Shown here: piece by piece, positions 12,787 to 28,791 of the stretch
How positions within the stretch are numbered: the stretch's first letter is position 1
Layout: the number at the start of each line of letters is the position of its first letter
From: an uncultured Gemmatimonadales bacterium
Lineage (GTDB): Bacteria > Gemmatimonadota > Gemmatimonadetes > Gemmatimonadales > Gemmatimonadaceae
Reading direction: 5' to 3'
DNA: 64,000 nucleotides
Assembly: GCA_963707505.1 (NCBI GenBank)
Contig: CAVPQB010000006.1
Coordinates: 32,001 to 96,000, forward strand
Program-made: the position numbers and the translations under genes
The notes under the pieces: model-generated
Database searches by the model: none
What the model saw: only the letters and a program-made list of their open reading frames with translations
Told to the model about the DNA's origin: nothing

Positions 12787-12862
12787 ACGTGCGCTGCCTC
12801 TCAACGGTAGAACGGCCCGGCGTTTGCCTTTACAGGCTTACAACTCTCTCCGGAGGAACGCC

Positions 12863-13342
12863 ATGCACTCGCGAACCTTTCATACCCCACTGGCGGCGAT
12901 CGCGTTGCTCGCGACCGCATTCACGATCGCCCCGCTACGCGCTCCAGCGCAGGACACCACGTCCACCGATTACCGCGTGTCCATCGACGGAACGCCTGCC
13001 GGAACGGCGACGGCCGTGGTGAATCTTCCCGGCAACGCCGTCGTTCTGCATCAGAATTCCACTCCGAACCTGCCCTCCAAACAGATAGTGTCAGGAGACC
13101 AGGGCACAATCATGCTGACGACGACCGATCCCGGGCTCGTCTCCGCGATCCAGGCATGGATGAAAGCCGACAACGCGGGCTACAAGGACACCGTACAGCG
13201 CAAGACAGTCGAGATCGACCGCATCGGTGGTGGCGCCAATTCACGCACGCGTCTCTCCGGCGCGTGGCCCACCAAGCTGACGGCGGCAACTACAGGGAAT
13301 ACGATAACGATCGTGTATCAGCAGCTCGCGCCGGTGCCGTGA
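12863..13342 (+). CDS. Secreted protein resembling T4 gp19-like / eCIS tail tube proteins
   Basis: GGAGG RBS and a Sec signal peptide; motifs YRVSIDG, IQAWMK, QRKTVEI, LSGAWPTKL, ITIVYQQL. The CDS is solid; the family call is by eye. Confidence 0.55.
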   Translation: MHSRTFHTPLAAIALLATAFTIAPLRAPAQDTTSTDYRVSIDGTPAGTATAVVNLPGNAVVLHQNSTPNLPSKQIVSGDQGTIMLTTTDPGLVSAIQAWMKADNAGYKDTVQRKTVEIDRIGGGANSRTRLSGAWPTKLTAATTGNTITIVYQQLAPVP

Positions 13343-13561: not shown

Positions 13562-13627
13562 AAGTACCGAAGCAGCGCTCTCGATATCACGCCCTGGGGA
13601 TTCAATCCTCAGGGCTTTTTTGTTTTT
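13495..13627 (+). promoter_or_regulatory. Transcription attenuator of the aroF-pheA-aroH-thrC operon
   Basis: Protector CTGGGG/CCCCAG (13495-13510); 11-bp antiterminator 13505-13515/13589-13599; terminator 13591-13615 with T tail. Confidence 0.8.
13591..13627 (+). terminator. Attenuator terminator hairpin
   Basis: GCCCTGGGGA-TTCAA-TCCTCAGGGC-TTTTTTGTTTTT, about 25 nt before the aroF start. Confidence 0.9.
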
Positions 13628-13652
13628 CCGACCGATCCACCGAGGCTCCAAA

Positions 13653-14642
13653 ATGTCCCAGTCAGCTCCTGAGTACGCGTTAGCCGCGCACCCAACCACC
13701 GTTGGCGACGCCAGATCGTCGACGAAACCCGTTCGCGTGACTCCCACGCTTGTCATTGGCGGTCACGACGTAGTCGTCGCGGCCGGCCCGTGCTCCGTCG
13801 AGGGATACGACATGCTCCTCGCCAGCGCGCGCCACGTGCAGTCGGTCGGTGGCACACTGCTGCGCGGCGGCGCTTTCAAGCCGCGTACATCTCCCTATGC
13901 ATTTCAGGGACTCGGCGAGGAAGGGCTTCTGCTGCTCGCATCGGTCCGCGAGCAGACTGGGATGCCGATCGTTACCGAAGTGATGGATACCCGCCAGGTC
14001 GCGCGCGTCGCACAGATCGCAGATGTCATTCAGGTCGGCGCGCGCAACATGCAGAACTTCCCGCTGCTGGCCGAGTTGGGACGCGCAGGAAAACCGGTAC
14101 TCCTCAAACGCGGCGCATCGGCGCGAATTTCGGAGCTTCTGCTTGCTGCCGAGTATGTGATGGCGAACGGGAACGAGCGCGTGATACTGTGCGAGCGCGG
14201 TATTCGAACGTTCGAGACGATCACCCGCAACACACTCGATATCTCAGCGATCCCCGTGCTGAAAGCCGAGACGCATCTTCCCGTGATCGTCGACCCGAGT
14301 CATGCAGGTGGTCGTGCGGATCTCGTGCTGCCGCTCGCCCTCGCCGCGATCGCCGCTGGCGCTGATGGATTGATCGTCGAGGTCCACCCCGATCCATCAG
14401 TAGCGCGCTCAGACGCAGATCAGCAGCTGACGTTCGCCCAGTTCACCGATCTCATGCACGGCATCTCACTGATCGCCGCCGCGAGCAACCGCACGGTCCG
14501 TACGTCGATTCCCTCTCCGGTCGTGCCGAACATCGCGGCGACCGATGTCACCGACAGGCCGCACGCCCCACGGCGGCGTGGAGAGGAGACGCCTGCGGAG
14601 GAGACTCTTGCCGAGGAGACTCTTGCAGTGGTGGCCGCATGA
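13653..14642 (+). CDS. aroF: DAHP synthase, type I-beta, without an N-terminal regulatory domain
   Basis: [36 protein letters not shown] and VDPSH motifs. Confidence 0.92.
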
Positions 14643-15313
14643 TCGCGACACACAGCTCGACCGCGCGACTCTCTTCCACGCGTGAACACTCCGACGACGG
14701 TATCCACGTTGCATTTCAGGGCGAGCTCGGCGCATACGGAGATCAGGCCATCGCGCAACGCTGGCACGGCGATGCGGTGCCAGCGCCATCGGCATCCTTC
14801 GAGCACGTAGTGGCCGATGTCGCGTGGGAGATAGCCGATTTCGGGATACTCCCCGTGTGGAACTCGGTGGTGGGCGACATCGCGGCCGGATGTGCAGCCG
14901 TCAAGCTTGCCAGGAGCTCACCATATGGGCTCGTCGTGATCGGCGACACCCACGTCGTCGTGCGACATCATCTGCTCGCCCTTCCAGGCAGCCGAGTCGA
15001 TTACATCGAATCCGTGACCAGTCATCCCGTCGCGCTCGCGCAGTGCGGCAAGTTCCTCGCGGCGCATCCGAAGATCAAGCCGATATCGGGATATGACACC
15101 GCCGGTGCTGCTCGTGACCTGGTGATGCATGGGACACGTAATGCGGCCGCGATCGCAGGCCGCGTCGCTGCCGAACGCTACGGTCTCATCATACTCGAAG
15201 CGGACATCCAGGATGTCCCCGACAACGTGACACACTTTCTCATACTGGCGCGTCCGGTACGTAAAAGCGGCGAATCGCGCATGCCGCGCGTGAGCGAGAT
15301 CGTTCGATGGTGA
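14639..15313 (+). CDS. pheA: Prephenate dehydratase, catalytic domain only
   Basis: [25 protein letters not shown] and DNVTHF motifs; ends before any ACT domain; ATGA overlap with aroF. Confidence 0.85.
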
Positions 15314-15738
15314 CCACACCCGACCTGGACGCGTGGCGAGTGCGAGCAGTCCGCGGCGCAACAACGGTCGCTGGAGACAATCAGCTGCTCGTCCATGACG
15401 CCATACGCGAGCTCCTGACCACTCTGATGGCGCACAACGACATCAGGAAAAACGACATCGTCAGCGCAGTGTTCACCGCCACGACCGACCTGCGTTCCGC
15501 CTTCCCCGCTACCGCCGCGCGCGACCTCGGCTGGAACGACGTGCCGATGCTGTGCGCGTCGGAGATCGATGTTCCGGATGCCCAGCCACGCTGTCTTCGC
15601 GTGCTCCTGCACGTCGAGCGTCGCGTCTCCCAACCGCCGCTCGTTCCGATTTACCTCCGCGACGCCGCATCGCTCAGACCGGATCTGTCGGCCGCATCTC
15701 AGCGCGAGCCGGAGCTGGCGGGAATGGCGCAGAGTTGA
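15307..15738 (+). CDS. aroH: Chorismate mutase, AroH class
   Basis: VRAVRGATTV, FTATTDL, FPATAAR, VPMLC and SLRPDL motifs. Confidence 0.92.
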   Translation: MVTTPDLDAWRVRAVRGATTVAGDNQLLVHDAIRELLTTLMAHNDIRKNDIVSAVFTATTDLRSAFPATAARDLGWNDVPMLCASEIDVPDAQPRCLRVLLHVERRVSQPPLVPIYLRDAASLRPDLSAASQREPELAGMAQS

Positions 15739-15752
15739 TATATCCACTTGTA

Positions 15753-16862
15753 ATGCCATCAGGGAAATCCGAACTCACGCATGTCGGTGCCAGGCCTCGC
15801 ACAGCGCGCGGCGTTCTGGCTCGCTACGCAGAATTTCTTCCGCTGACTGCAGCGACCCCCGCCCTGTCTCTCGCAGAGGGCGACACCCCCTTGCTCGCAG
15901 CTCCGCGCCTTGCAAAGTGGGTTGGCGTGGATGACCTGCACCTCAAGTACGAAGGTGCCAATCCGAGCGGATCGTTCAAGGATCGCGGAATGGTCGTCGC
16001 CGTCGCCAAGGCGATCGAGGCCGGCTCGACGACGATAATCTGTGCATCCACGGGCAACACCTCGGCAAGTGCCGCTGCTTACGCGGCGCACGCAGGCATC
16101 AAGGCTGTAGTTTTGCTGCCCGCCGGAAAGGTTGCGCGAGGCAAGCTTGCGCAAGCTATCATGGCTGGTGCGACGGTGATCACGCTCGAGGGAAACTTCG
16201 ACCAGGCACTCACGGTCGCGCGCGATCTCGCACGTGATTACCGCGTCGCGCTCGTGAACTCGGTCAATCCACATCGCATAGCTGGCCAGACGACGGCGGC
16301 GTTCGAAGTGTGCGACGTGCTCGGCGATGCACCGGAAGTTGTCGCGTTACCCGTCGGTAATGGCGGTAACGTCACCGCGTATTCGGAAGGCTTCCGCATA
16401 TACCGGGACGCGAACCGGAGCACACGCATGCCCGTGTTCATCGGCGCACAGGCCGCCGGCGCCGCTCCGCTTGTTCACGGCGCACCGGTCGCGAACCCCG
16501 AAACTGTTGCGACCGCGATACGAATCGGCAATCCGGCCAGCTGGACGTCGGCGGTGAATGCGGTAACGTCATCGGGTGGCGAATTCAGCGCCGTCACCGA
16601 CGATGAAATTCTCGAATCGTATCACAGGGTCGCTGAGCTCGAAGGCGTATTCTGCGAGCCCGCCTCCGCCGCAGGGATCGCTGCACTCAGAATCGCTGTT
16701 CGCAACGGACGTGTTGCGCCAGGAATGCGCGCTGTCTGCGTGCTTACCGGCAACGGACTGAAAGATCCCGATCGTGCGGTGCCGGAATCGTTTACTCCTG
16801 CGATTCTTCCAGCTGACGCGACAGCGCTCGCCAGACAGCTGCATCTGACACGACTGTCGTGA
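15753..16862 (+). CDS. thrC: Threonine synthase (short type)
   Basis: EGDTPL, NPSGSFKDRGM, CASTGNTSASAAAY, PVGNGGN, ATAIRIGNP and LTGNGLKDP motifs. Confidence 0.9.
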   Translation: MPSGKSELTHVGARPRTARGVLARYAEFLPLTAATPALSLAEGDTPLLAAPRLAKWVGVDDLHLKYEGANPSGSFKDRGMVVAVAKAIEAGSTTIICASTGNTSASAAAYAAHAGIKAVVLLPAGKVARGKLAQAIMAGATVITLEGNFDQALTVARDLARDYRVALVNSVNPHRIAGQTTAAFEVCDVLGDAPEVVALPVGNGGNVTAYSEGFRIYRDANRSTRMPVFIGAQAAGAAPLVHGAPVANPETVATAIRIGNPASWTSAVNAVTSSGGEFSAVTDDEILESYHRVAELEGVFCEPASAAGIAALRIAVRNGRVAPGMRAVCVLTGNGLKDPDRAVPESFTPAILPADATALARQLHLTRLS

Positions 16863-16900: not shown

Positions 16901-16929
16901 TTGCGGGCGCGAGTACGGAGCTGTATCGT
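16901..16929 (+). promoter_or_regulatory. Candidate promoter giving a leaderless transcript at ATG 16936
   Basis: TTGCGG-N17-TATCGT followed by 6 nt and then the leader ATG. Confidence 0.6.
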
Positions 16930-16935
16930 AGTTCA

Positions 16936-17022
16936 ATGCAGTCATTCAATCGCGCAAACAATGTGCTCCCATCCAATCCCAATCGAAACTGCTTGGGGCG
17001 GGTGATCGTGTTGCGCGGATGA
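16936..17022 (+). CDS. Asn-rich leader peptide (28 aa)
   Basis: MQSFNRANNVLPSNPNRNCLGRVIVLRG*; 6 Asn in residues 5-18; followed by a terminator and then tRNA-Asn. Confidence 0.75.
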   Translation: MQSFNRANNVLPSNPNRNCLGRVIVLRG

Positions 17023-17055
17023 TCTGACAGCACCAGACATTACCGTTACACATTC

Positions 17056-17092
17056 GCCCTTCCGAGCGGTCGCTCAGAAGGGCTTTTCGTTT
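17056..17092 (+). terminator. Attenuator terminator upstream of tRNA-Asn
   Basis: GCCCTTC-C-GAGC-GGTC-GCTC-A-GAAGGGC-TTTTCGTTT; the 5' arm region (17051-17060) can instead pair with 16995-17004. Confidence 0.85.
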
Positions 17093-17132
17093 AGAACTCG
17101 TCGCTGATTGCCGAAACTCAGGGCAATCCCGA

Positions 17133-17205
17133 TGGGGTGTAGGTCAATTGGCAGACCGCCCGACTGTTACTCGGGAAGTTGCAGGTTCGAATCCCGCCGC
17201 CCCAG
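17133..17205 (+). tRNA. tRNA-Asn (GTT)
   Basis: Cloverleaf: acceptor TGGGGTG/CGCCCCA, D arm GGTC/GACC, anticodon arm CCCGA-CTGTTAC-TCGGG, TTCGAAT loop, G73; CCA not encoded. Confidence 0.93.
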
Positions 17206-17395
17206 CTTGAAATACACGGTTACGATATCAACGCCCGAGTCGTATTGATGAATTCGGAGCCATTCCACACAGCCCTGGCGACGACTGGCGGCATGCCAGC
17301 CGGCGCAAACTGCTAATGAAGTCAGCCCCACTTCAGCGCCTTGATATCCACCCTGCCACTCGGCAGGGACTGCGTAGCAGCGTCACCGCGACTCT

Positions 17396-19474
17396 GTGAC
17401 CCCAATGCGCACGTCTCGGGCGCACGTGAGCCCGTCAACCCCGACGCAAGTCGCCCGCGAGACAACCTCTGTCTGGGAGATCGGGCTCTTCCTGCTGGCG
17501 ACCGCGTGCTTCGCGGGATATCTCGTCTGGGTCGGCTTCGACAGTATGGGAGGCGGCAGCACCGCGTCCCGCGTTCCGATCGTTACCCAGTCGCTGCTGT
17601 TCGTCCTCTCGATGCTGACCGCTGTCCTCTGCGCTATCGTGTCTGGACACGGCCTCGATCGAGCCACGCGGCGGGCATGGCTCTTCTTCGCCATCGCGCA
17701 GATTGCGACCGGAATCGTCAGCCTGTCATGGGTTTACCGCCTCGCATCCGGCAGTGGCGTCGCTGGACCACTGGCGCTCCAACTGATCGCCGCGACGTAC
17801 GACGTTTTCCTGCTGGCGGCCCTCGTCACGTTCCCTGTCCGGCGCATGGCCAGTGGCGACCGGTCGACGTTCTGGTTCGATGGTGCAATCGTCGCCGGCG
17901 TCGCGGCGCTGCTGACGTGGCATTTACTACTACGCGCTGCCCTCGTCGCGGCCGGATCGGACTGGCGCACCGCCATGTATGCGTTGGCCTACCCGGTAGC
18001 GGATGTGGTGCTTCTGTTCGCAGCAGTGGTGCTGTTGCTCCGGCGCCCGTTACCGGGAAGTCTGCGGTCCATTCGCATCATTGGCGTCAGCATTCTTCTT
18101 AACACAGCCGCCGATCTGCTCTACATGTGGGCATACATCGCACATGAATCCCAGGCCGGTCGGTTCTTCTATGTGGTGTGGGCGGTCGTTGCGTGGATGG
18201 CCACGGCCGCGGTGTTCGCCCAGTGCCAGAATCTGCAGCAGGATTTCGGGTCGGTACATCTCACGTCGCATGAGCGGCGCAATCATCCGCAAAGCCTCAT
18301 TCCGTATCTGGCGATAGCAGCCATTTACGCAACGCTGATAGTCGAGGCATTTCGAACCGAGGCTCACGCTGCAGTCGTTTCGCCAGTTGCTCACCGGCTG
18401 TCCATCGCCGCGGACTTCCCCGTCACCACGATTGTCGTCGGAGCGATGGTGGTGACAGCGATCGTGATTGCGCGTCAGGTTGCGGCGCAGCGAAGAAACG
18501 CCGAGCTCGTGCGCGAGCGACTCGCACGTGAGGCGCACTTCCGTGCGCTCGTCCAGCATTCGTCCGACATGGTGCTGGTGCTCGAAGCAGATGGAACGGT
18601 ACGCGAGGCCAGCCCCGCGGTCGCGCGCGTTCTCGGTCACGCGCCCCAAAAAGTCGTGGGACGCACATTCTGGGAGTTCTTCGTCTCCGACGACATGGCG
18701 GTCGTTCAGGCCGATATCGCGCAAGCCATCGCCGCTGGCGACGGAGAGGTCACCGCGAGCGGCCCGTGCGAGTGGCGCATCCGCGCGGCCAACGGCAGTG
18801 AGCGATGGGTCGAAGCCATCTGCACGAACCTGCTCGACGATCCCGTCGTGATGGGGCTCGTCATCAACGGGCGTGACGTCAGCGAGCGCAAGCAGCTGGA
18901 AGTCGAGCTCACGCATCGCGCATATCACGATACTCTCACCGGGTTGGTGAATCGCACACGCTTCCGCGCAAAGGTCGTCGACGCCATCGCTCGCACCAAA
19001 TCCGGCAAAAGACCCGATGACGGACGGAGCGGGCTCGCAATTCTCTACATCGATCTCGATGGCTTCAAGGCTGTCAACGACATCTTCGGACATGACGCCG
19101 GCGATCTGGTCCTTGCAACGATCGCCGATCGCCTGCGCGACGCTACCCGCGGCTCCGATACCGCTGCACGGCTTGGGGGCGATGAATTCGCGATTCTGCT
19201 GGAGCGCCTGCGAGACGCGGATGAAGTTCGCATGGTTGCGAAACGCGTATTACACCTCGTGCGCGGTCCGATCAGAATCGATCACCGGGACGTTGTGGTC
19301 GGCGCCAGCATCGGAATCGTGTGCACCTCACTCGGCGACACAACCAGGGAACGCGAACGCGCGATAGATCCCGACGTCCTGCTGCGCAACGCAGACTCTG
19401 CGATGTACGCCGCGAAGGCCCGGGGACGCGGGAATTACGAGTTTTTCGTTCCCGTCGCGGGCGAGATTGTGTGA
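17396..19474 (+). CDS. Membrane-bound PAS + GGDEF diguanylate cyclase
   Basis: Multi-TM N-terminus, PAS domain, DLDGFKAVND, RLGGDEF, ADSAMYAAK; no EAL domain. Confidence 0.9.
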   Translation: MTPMRTSRAHVSPSTPTQVARETTSVWEIGLFLLATACFAGYLVWVGFDSMGGGSTASRVPIVTQSLLFVLSMLTAVLCAIVSGHGLDRATRRAWLFFAIAQIATGIVSLSWVYRLASGSGVAGPLALQLIAATYDVFLLAALVTFPVRRMASGDRSTFWFDGAIVAGVAALLTWHLLLRAALVAAGSDWRTAMYALAYPVADVVLLFAAVVLLLRRPLPGSLRSIRIIGVSILLNTAADLLYMWAYIAHESQAGRFFYVVWAVVAWMATAAVFAQCQNLQQDFGSVHLTSHERRNHPQSLIPYLAIAAIYATLIVEAFRTEAHAAVVSPVAHRLSIAADFPVTTIVVGAMVVTAIVIARQVAAQRRNAELVRERLAREAHFRALVQHSSDMVLVLEADGTVREASPAVARVLGHAPQKVVGRTFWEFFVSDDMAVVQADIAQAIAAGDGEVTASGPCEWRIRAANGSERWVEAICTNLLDDPVVMGLVINGRDVSERKQLEVELTHRAYHDTLTGLVNRTRFRAKVVDAIARTKSGKRPDDGRSGLAILYIDLDGFKAVNDIFGHDAGDLVLATIADRLRDATRGSDTAARLGGDEFAILLERLRDADEVRMVAKRVLHLVRGPIRIDHRDVVVGASIGIVCTSLGDTTRERERAIDPDVLLRNADSAMYAAKARGRGNYEFFVPVAGEIV

Positions 19475-27446: not shown

Positions 27447-28148
27447 ATGTCCCACACACGTCCCGCTGTCGTGCTTTTGAGTGGTGGCCTCGACTCTACA
27501 ACCGTGCTCGCCATTGCCAGGCGCGACGGCTATGAGGTCAATGCGCTCTCGTTCAGCTATGGGCAGAGACATGACCGCGAGATCGACGCTGCACGCCGGA
27601 TAGCGAACAGCTATGGCGTTGCGCGTCACGAGATAGTGACGATCGATCTTCGCGTGTTCGGCGGCTCCGCTCTCACATCGGACATTGCCGTTCCCAAGGG
27701 ACGCGACGTGAAGGACGCGACGGACGTCCCGGTTACGTATGTACCGGCTCGCAATACGATTTTCCTATCGTACGCACTCGCGTTCGCCGAAGTTACCGAT
27801 GCGCGAGACATATTCATCGGAGTCAATGCACTCGACTATTCCGGCTATCCCGATTGCCGGCCCGAGTACATCCATGCATTCGAGCGCATGGCCAACCTCG
27901 CGACCCGAGCCGGCGCCGAAGGCAATGCGATCAACATTCGTACGCCGCTCATCGATCTGACCAAGGCACAGATCATAGCGCTCGGCATGTCGCTCGGCGT
28001 CGACTATTCAATGACCACGAGCTGTTATGATCCATCCGCGACCGGCGAGGCATGCGGCGAGTGCGATGCGTGTCAGCTACGCCTTGCCGGATTCAGTGCG
28101 GCAGGATCCACCGATCCGATAGCGTACATGGGCGCGGGACGCGTTTAG
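27447..28148 (+). CDS. queC: 7-cyano-7-deazaguanine synthase
   Basis: [20 protein letters not shown] and SCY...CGECDAC motifs. Confidence 0.95.
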
Positions 28149-28152
28149 ATCG

Positions 28153-28791
28153 ATGGCGTACACAGTCAAGGAAATCTTCTACACGCTCCAAGGGGAAGGA
28201 GCAAACACCGGCCGCGCGGCAGTGTTCTGCCGCTTTTCGGGGTGCAATCTGTGGACGGGTCGCGAGAGCGACCGCGCGAATGCCGTCTGTACGTTCTGCG
28301 ACACTGATTTCGTCGGTGTTGGCCCTGACGGCGGGAAGTTCGCAAATGCCGAAGCGCTCGCCGATGCGGTCGAGGCGGCGTGGACACCGGCTACAGAAGA
28401 CGGAGCGGAACGATTCGTCGTGTGCACAGGAGGCGAGCCGCTGCTGCAGCTCGACGAGCCTGCCGTCGAGGCGCTGCATCGTCGTGGCTTTCGCGTCGCT
28501 GTCGAAACCAATGGAACGCAGCCCGCAACAGCTGGCCTCGACTGGATCTGCGTGAGTCCCAAGGCCGACGCGGCGGTCGTGATCACGGCCGGTGACGAAC
28601 TCAAGCTGGTCTATCCGCAGGAACGCGCAATGCCGGAGCGTTTCGCGAATCTCCAGTTCACGCACTTCTTCCTCCAGCCGATGGACGGACCGTCCCTCGA
28701 ACAGGCTACCCGAGCAGCAATCCAGTATTGCCTCGACCATCCGAAGTGGAGGCTGTCGGTTCAGACGCACAAGGTCGCCGGAATCCGCTGA
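28153..28791 (+). CDS. queE: 7-carboxy-7-deazaguanine synthase (radical SAM, Cx14CxxC type)
   Basis: EIFYTLQGEG, GCNLW...CTFCDT, TGGEP, ETNG, SPK and QTHK motifs. Confidence 0.95.
   Translation: MAYTVKEIFYTLQGEGANTGRAAVFCRFSGCNLWTGRESDRANAVCTFCDTDFVGVGPDGGKFANAEALADAVEAAWTPATEDGAERFVVCTGGEPLLQLDEPAVEALHRRGFRVAVETNGTQPATAGLDWICVSPKADAAVVITAGDELKLVYPQERAMPERFANLQFTHFFLQPMDGPSLEQATRAAIQYCLDHPKWRLSVQTHKVAGIR

Follow-up and report, generated by a model that had tools for sequence, protein, structure and literature searches.

The classical leader-peptide attenuators, among them E. coli trpL, hisL, thrL, leuL, pheL and pheST, combine a short ORF with clustered codons, a protector helix and an intrinsic terminator in a 1:2/2:3/3:4 helix geometry. 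Their antiterminator overlaps the end of the ORF, and termination is predicted when the ORF is untranslated. The regulated gene is normally a biosynthetic enzyme or a synthetase, and the output of bacterial tRNA genes is commonly ascribed to the strength of their promoters, their copy number, and growth-rate and stringent control. The comparison set used here also includes the actinobacterial trp, trpS and leuS leaders, as presented in parts of PMC1183508, PMC1262725 and PMC4833913. The same elements, including predicted termination without translation, are shared by a locus in front of a tRNA-Asn gene in the window, by which we mean the whole stretch of 64,000 nucleotides of DNA from an uncultured Gemmatimonadales bacterium that was analysed. 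Judged from its sequence, this locus is very probably a leaderless, ribosome-mediated transcription attenuator that induces a second, supplementary tRNA-Asn (T2). It comprises the following features.

15762 to 16862, plus strand: thrC, threonine synthase, last gene of the aroF-PDT-chorismate mutase-thrC cluster (TIGR00260, 306 bits, cut-off 167)
16901 to 16929, plus strand: putative promoter, with -35 TTGCGG (16901-16906), a 17-nt spacer and -10 TATCGT (16924-16929)
16936 to 17022, plus strand: leader ORF of 28 codons, with Asn at 5, 8, 9, 14, 16 and 18
16941 to 17028, plus strand: protector (1:2) fold, 16950-16963:17007-17018 and 16977-16985:16990-16998, -31.4 kcal/mol
16990 to 17068, plus strand: antiterminator (2:3), core 16990-17005:17054-17068, extendable to 17026:17034, -36.8 kcal/mol
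17056 to 17092, plus strand: intrinsic terminator (3:4), stem 17056-17083 and U-rich tail 17084-17092, -20.1 kcal/mol
17106 to 17128, plus strand: small hairpin directly 5' of the tRNA, -11.4 kcal/mol, 90% of cells paired
17133 to 17206, plus strand: tRNA-Asn(GUU) of the second type (T2), anticodon GTT
17396 to 19474, plus strand: membrane PAS-GGDEF protein, context, kept within the genus only

The original prediction had placed the promoter boxes, ORF, terminator and tRNA-Asn(GTT) at these coordinates and counted six Asn codons in the 28-codon ORF (four AAT, two AAC); all of this proved correct on recheck. The terminator tail reads TTTTCGTTT. A generic promoter and terminator scanner, run over the window at its own thresholds, detected neither the leader promoter nor the terminator. 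The hairpin directly before the tRNA is absent in one relative (G020), and a role in processing or pausing is a guess. Placement of the thrC start codon is uncertain, and thrC serves as context to the unit only. Directly upstream of the unit, thrC overlaps in one cluster (13620-16862) with the genes for DAHP synthase, prephenate dehydratase and chorismate mutase, and transcripts of this cluster may read into the leader. An ORF of 172 aa at 12824-13342 begins with a signal-peptide-like stretch and has no Pfam match.

All six AAY triplets inside the window ORF are in frame, and at the genome Asn frequency of 2.8% the probability of at least 6 Asn among 27 residues is 8e-5. To survey relatives, a fixed rule was applied (ATG, 10-45 codons, stop 35-150 nt before the tRNA, at least three Asn). 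By this rule an Asn-rich short ORF precedes 43 of 177 T2 loci and none of 32 canonical (T1) loci; one of the 43, L045, is doubtful and was excluded from the cross-locus pairing test onward. In the first set, a leader ORF was present at 38 of 131 T2 loci compared with 1.3 +/- 1.0 in dinucleotide shuffles, and no other residue was enriched comparably to Asn in these 131 loci. Twelve of 143 rows had been left out of this set (seven failing the tRNA filter, four too short, one duplicate); L092 and L105, both dropped by the tRNA filter, look like real tRNAs. Among the loci fetched later, 6 of 23 new ones carry an Asn-rich ORF, each followed by a hairpin. A leader is missing from around three quarters of T2 genes, among them the Gemmatimonas-labelled loci such as L042 and L067, and the genomes G007 and G190 are present only as T2 loci without one.

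The leader peptides share little except Asn, as illustrated by MNNTRGNSNPNMNRNPNGDCDRGLA in L033 (Longimicrobiales) and MNSALNRNNLNNNRPSSRRPG in L116. In 30 dereplicated leaders (less than 75% alike), Asn is enriched 7.5-fold, and AAY triplets occur 146 times in frame and 5 times out of frame. Selection on at least three Asn favours in-frame counts, yet cannot yield 146:5; the genomes are kin, and the counts overstate independence. AAT accounts for 87 of the 146 Asn codons (60%), compared with 33% in the genes of the window genome (G000), whereas other NNT codons in the leaders are mostly not enriched. Conservation of the Asn-rich ORF in relatives, which the original prediction had set as a test, thus holds with otherwise unrelated peptides.

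These counts bear on the reading that the switch answers to another signal (a protein, general ribosome stalling or an antibiotic), or that the structure is a terminator of fixed leakiness, with the Asn codons not acting as sensor. The AACAA motif does pair with UUGUU in the protector helix. In L005 (G003:C3, near 131500), AGG replaces the ATG while five Asn codons and all helices are kept, and decay, an assembly error or a non-canonical start would each account for this. There is also a precedent, since the attenuator-like ilvB and leuA leaders of Streptomyces coelicolor, once mutated, did not behave as attenuators according to a part of PMC1262725. The in-frame bias together with the free exchange of AAT and AAC in unrelated peptides makes such a reading improbable, as does the match between the leader amino acid and the gated tRNA.

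Some variation in leader composition was seen as well. A second leader type with three Asn and two Cys codons precedes another T2 copy in L018 (G005) and L027 (G019), so that G019 carries two leader-bearing T2 genes, and the leaders of L009, L010 and L065 contain several Asp codons alongside Asn. Scanning G000 genome-wide returned 214 small ORFs with at least four Asn; of the four further candidates examined, three overlap coding genes, and no second Asn attenuator was shown among these four. No Asn attenuator was seen before asnS in this genome, and none of its 50 tRNA calls offered a convincing case of a cognate leader at another tRNA gene.

Pairing energies offer a view of the switch itself. 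The helix originally proposed as antiterminator, 16995-17004:17051-17060, does exist (10 bp, 3 G-U, -15.4 kcal/mol), but the register 16990-17005:17054-17068 is stronger (-21.6 kcal/mol), and it is in this register that covariation is seen among relatives. The antiterminator is mutually exclusive with the terminator and overlaps the 3' part of the ORF. Between the 3' end of the window ORF and the 5' arm of the terminator the pairing energy reaches -31.0 kcal/mol, compared with -19.1 +/- 3.2 in shuffles, 8 of 5000 of which were as strong.

The same relationship extends across loci. A terminator-like hairpin is present at 35 of 43 leader loci, compared with 36 of 134 leader-free T2 loci and 10 of 32 canonical loci. 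The last 24 nt of the ORF pair with the 5' arm of their own terminator at a mean of -20.0 kcal/mol, compared with -15.8 +/- 0.55 for permuted partners, and none of 100,000 permutations was as strong. The first 24 nt of the ORF, taken through the same permutation test, displayed no preference for their own terminator. The own duplex ranked poorly in L006, L018, L046 and L091.

Covariation points in the same direction. One subfamily, represented by 21 sequences, has 91 Watson-Crick pairs compared with 78.8 +/- 3.9 (18 of 20,000). Within seven sequences of the genus, the antiterminator has four pairs altered on both sides (a count reached in 5 of 500 shuffles) and the combined protector-terminator state has five (0 of 500 shuffles), the structures having been derived from the window sequence, the sequences being related and the controls lenient. 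In these seven sequences, the terminator taken separately has 96% of cells paired and two two-sided changes, and the protector fold 80-85% of cells paired with one two-sided change only. Bases 17056 and 17060, which are common to antiterminator and terminator, change together with both of their partners.

To follow the consequences of ribosome position, the ribosome was simulated by masking the covered RNA, with the A site stepped along the codons. In this folding model, the window terminator is partly on with the A site at codons 1-8, has a probability of at most 0.04 at codons 9-15 and of at least 0.8 from codon 16 onward, and reaches 1.0 without a ribosome. In the nascent window RNA, the terminator 5' arm is captured up to codon 16-18, depending on the footprint. 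The co-transcriptional model applied to 30 leaders gives a mean capture of 0.70 at the last Asn compared with 0.32 at the stop, with the capture boundary falling between these two points in 25 of 30. At full equilibrium, the terminator mostly forms and only 6 of 35 leaders switch between the last Asn and the stop; hence, the case rests on co-transcriptional folding, on which known attenuators likewise rely.

The following sequence of events is proposed. RNA polymerase would start at the leader ATG, with a coupled ribosome following. When Asn decoding is fast, the ribosome would pass codon 16-19 and cover the antiterminator strand, so that formation of the terminator ends transcription near 17090. 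When AAU and AAC are decoded slowly, the ribosome would wait on the Asn cluster and the protector helix would open; the freed segment 16990-17005 could then capture the 5' arm of the terminator, and polymerase would read into the tRNA. With no ribosome present, the protector is expected to hold the antiterminator strand, leading to termination. The signal would be the supply of Asn-tRNA(Asn) to ribosomes and the output more tRNA-Asn, making up a negative feedback loop. Candidate causes of low Asn-tRNA include shortage of Asn or Asp, loss or under-modification of the main tRNA, and high demand. The original prediction had likewise proposed that Asn-tRNA shortage allows read-through and yields more tRNA-Asn, which conservation, covariation and the folding model support. 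It is refined in three respects: the gated gene is a second type of tRNA-Asn and not the sole one, the ORF looks leaderless, and the antiterminator adopts a different register.

The leaderless character is suggested by the geometry of the promoter, which is putative and a consensus match only. ATG 16936 sits 6 nt after the -10 box TATCGT, and in seven genus members the boxes are nearly invariant while the spacer drifts. Boxes of the -35/-10 type with the ATG 5-8 nt behind them are found at 19 of 30 leaders. Among 2757 candidate ATGs genome-wide, TANNNT peaks 6 nt before the ATG, with 48 occurrences there compared with about 13 at each of the other offsets. The promoter geometry and this peak together fit leaderless translation of the leader, from a predicted transcription start at or beside its ATG.

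Comparison of the flanking genes helps to identify what is regulated. Upstream genes vary and lie on the opposite strand in L010, L017 and L051, while downstream genes fall into more than 15 unrelated families and are on the opposite strand in 8 loci. As the flanking genes vary and the tRNA is the sole constant, the tRNA would be the target. In 13 of 35 loci, no more than 15 nt lie between the stem of the terminator and the tRNA, too few for the tRNA to have a promoter of its own there; a promoter of this kind downstream of the hairpin, named earlier as a possible refutation, is thus not upheld.

Two alternatives concern these neighbors directly. The true target could be a protein gene behind the tRNA, with the tRNA as passenger. 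A class I/II aminotransferase gene lies about 41-66 nt behind the tRNA in L009, L010, L093 and L152, that of L009 and L010 being aspartate-aminotransferase-like, cysK follows the tRNA in L018, and no clear terminator is seen behind the tRNA in the window. Against the variety and partly opposite orientation of the downstream genes, we regard this possibility as very improbable. The other alternative, that the hairpin is only the terminator of the thrC operon and the ORF arose by chance, was an option already raised as refuting, and is scarcely credible. In the window, no terminator was apparent immediately past the stop codon of thrC, so the hairpin may also end thrC read-through. However, it lies 194 nt past that stop, thrC precedes the unit in part of the genus only, and the upstream genes differ between loci and are divergent in the three named above.

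The tRNA gene that we take as the target is one of two in its genome. G000 has two tRNA-Asn(GUU) genes, namely T2 in the window and the canonical T1 at G000:C4:773508-773582, which has no leader and is preceded by its own promoter-like sequence. T2 is distinguished by U1-A72, G73, absence of D-loop base 20A, C38, one T-stem mismatch and a CCA that is not encoded. A pattern scan of genome contigs for the T2 type returned at least 120 loci, nearly all Gemmatimonadota among the matches listed. Searches located T2 in 101 of 121 family genomes and in 80 of 151 phylum genomes, none of them outside the class. Five further genus members each carry T2 and a T1-type match, which in G011 covers the 3' half of T1 only. 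In G127:C3:41467-88428, eight matches to the 3' half of T2 lie within 47 kb, one of them with the 5' half, probably reflecting repeated integration at T2; an integrase is located behind T2 in L014.

Extra tRNA does not cure a pure shortage of the amino acid, and the benefit of inducing T2 hence needs explaining. One explanation makes T2 a spare decoding copy without any particular tie to Asn synthesis: whenever the main tRNA runs low, has been cleaved or is under-modified, the attenuator would replenish the tRNA-Asn pool. We place this reading somewhat short of probable. The canonical copy with its own promoter-like sequence coexists with T2, and the codon enriched in the leaders is the wobble-read AAT, other NNT codons mostly not following. 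C38 is present in 11 of 42 leader-bearing T2 compared with 5 of 135 others, giving an anticodon loop unlike that of the main tRNA. On the other side, residues whose tRNAs share queuosine (Asp, His, Tyr) or t6A (Lys, Thr, Ile) are not enriched in the leaders, so that a general modification sensor is unlikely; codon content gives no support to queuosine or t6A sensing by the leader. G000 moreover has queC and two tgt genes, and a spare copy leaves a possible link to gatB unexplained. In the window, queC and, behind it, an ORF that we take to be QueE-like lie at about 27465-28791.

The other explanation is that T2 serves as preferred scaffold for tRNA-dependent Asn synthesis by AspRS and then GatCAB. 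The attenuator would then induce a component of the Asn route, much as classical attenuators do. We consider this possible, if doubtful, and a division of work between the two tRNA-Asn types, with T2 as the GatCAB scaffold induced by a leaderless Asn attenuator upon Asn-tRNA shortage, is on balance rather unlikely. Some of the relevant evidence comes from gene content. Across 121 family genomes, asnS is present in 121 and gatB in 114, whereas only 2 encode an AsnB of the E. coli type. Searches for T2 gave nothing in 5 of the 7 genomes that lack gatB, compared with 15 of the 114 that have it, G044 and G063 both being counted among these 15; the association rests on two genera. In one genus (g32; G058, G108, G141), AsnB is present in 2 of 3 genomes, glnS is present, gatB is missing and the only tRNA-Asn is canonical, which may represent a natural switch to direct routes. 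Among the family genomes with glnS, 47 of 52 keep gatB, a pattern that a section of PMC4206432 ties to tRNA-dependent Asn synthesis. G000 itself has no glnS (the genome is 83% complete), and the need for Gln alone would explain its GatCAB.

The tRNAs and enzymes give a similarly divided picture. T2 displays both U1-A72 and the absence of 20A, the features of a GatCAB substrate under the rule in a part of PMC1635274, where 20A is described as making amidation 7-fold less efficient in Neisseria. In G000, the canonical copy does carry 20A; however, 22 of 32 canonical copies lack it. No asnA was found in G000, and its two AsnB-like genes lie in polysaccharide clusters, but each of these genes either clears the TIGR01536 cut-off or may still encode an Asn synthetase. 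The class I/II aminotransferases behind the tRNA in four loci would suit an Asn-related role, but pass no specific family cut-off. At position 30 the single AspRS carries Leu, as do the discriminating enzymes of E. coli and Thermus, which are its best structure hits; non-discriminating AspRS is marked by a His/Gly signature. The presence or absence of gatB was not accompanied by any telling difference in AspRS. At G000:C5:5771-6644, the 5' part of aspS occurs a second time in partial, interrupted form, either a duplication or an assembly artefact.

Among other known systems, the T-box is alike in sensing tRNA-Asn charging and in switching a terminator. Work by Saad from 2012 and 2013 reportedly describes a tRNA-Asn-responsive T-box of Clostridium acetobutylicum located before aspS-gatCAB, a case linked to the indirect Asn pathway. 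A T-box binds uncharged tRNA directly and without translation, whereas the T2 leader displays the signature of translated codons. An Rfam search with E up to 10 gave three matches, none to a leader family (Trp, His, Leu, Thr, Phe) or to a T-box; the tRNA was all that Rfam identified. The T-box targets named in a part of PMC2494555 are ligases, transporters and biosynthetic genes, with no tRNA genes among them. Bacteria with both Asn routes (Bdellovibrio, S. aureus, Deinococcus/Thermus) resemble the present system in having AsnRS plus GatCAB, one bacterial AspRS and a U1-A72 tRNA-Asn (PMC4206432, in part). In contrast to the T2 system, the same part of that paper mentions neither a second tRNA-Asn type nor an attenuator for them; it gives Gemmatimonas aurantiaca asnB, gatCAB, asnS and glnS.

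A full-text literature search, with the main attenuator and T-box surveys outside its scope, found no leader-peptide attenuator on a tRNA gene. If the proposed mechanism is true, it would represent a direct feedback in which ribosomes measure the reading of one codon pair and call up further supplies of the tRNA concerned. The retention of a second tRNA-Asn with an identical anticodon in many Gemmatimonadetes would then be accounted for, and a small testable part for sensing Asn-tRNA would be at hand. The mechanism also predicts that genome annotations have overlooked micro-ORFs in front of tRNA genes. Should T2 additionally be a scaffold for Asn synthesis, the locus would be a biosynthetic attenuator in which an RNA takes the place of the regulated "enzyme" and is at the same time the molecule sensed. 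By every sequence test run, the T2 leader belongs with the classical leader-peptide attenuators. Unlike them, it has Asn codons that are scattered and not in a run, its ORF looks leaderless, and its target is not a biosynthetic enzyme or synthetase gene but that of the cognate tRNA, the very molecule sensed.
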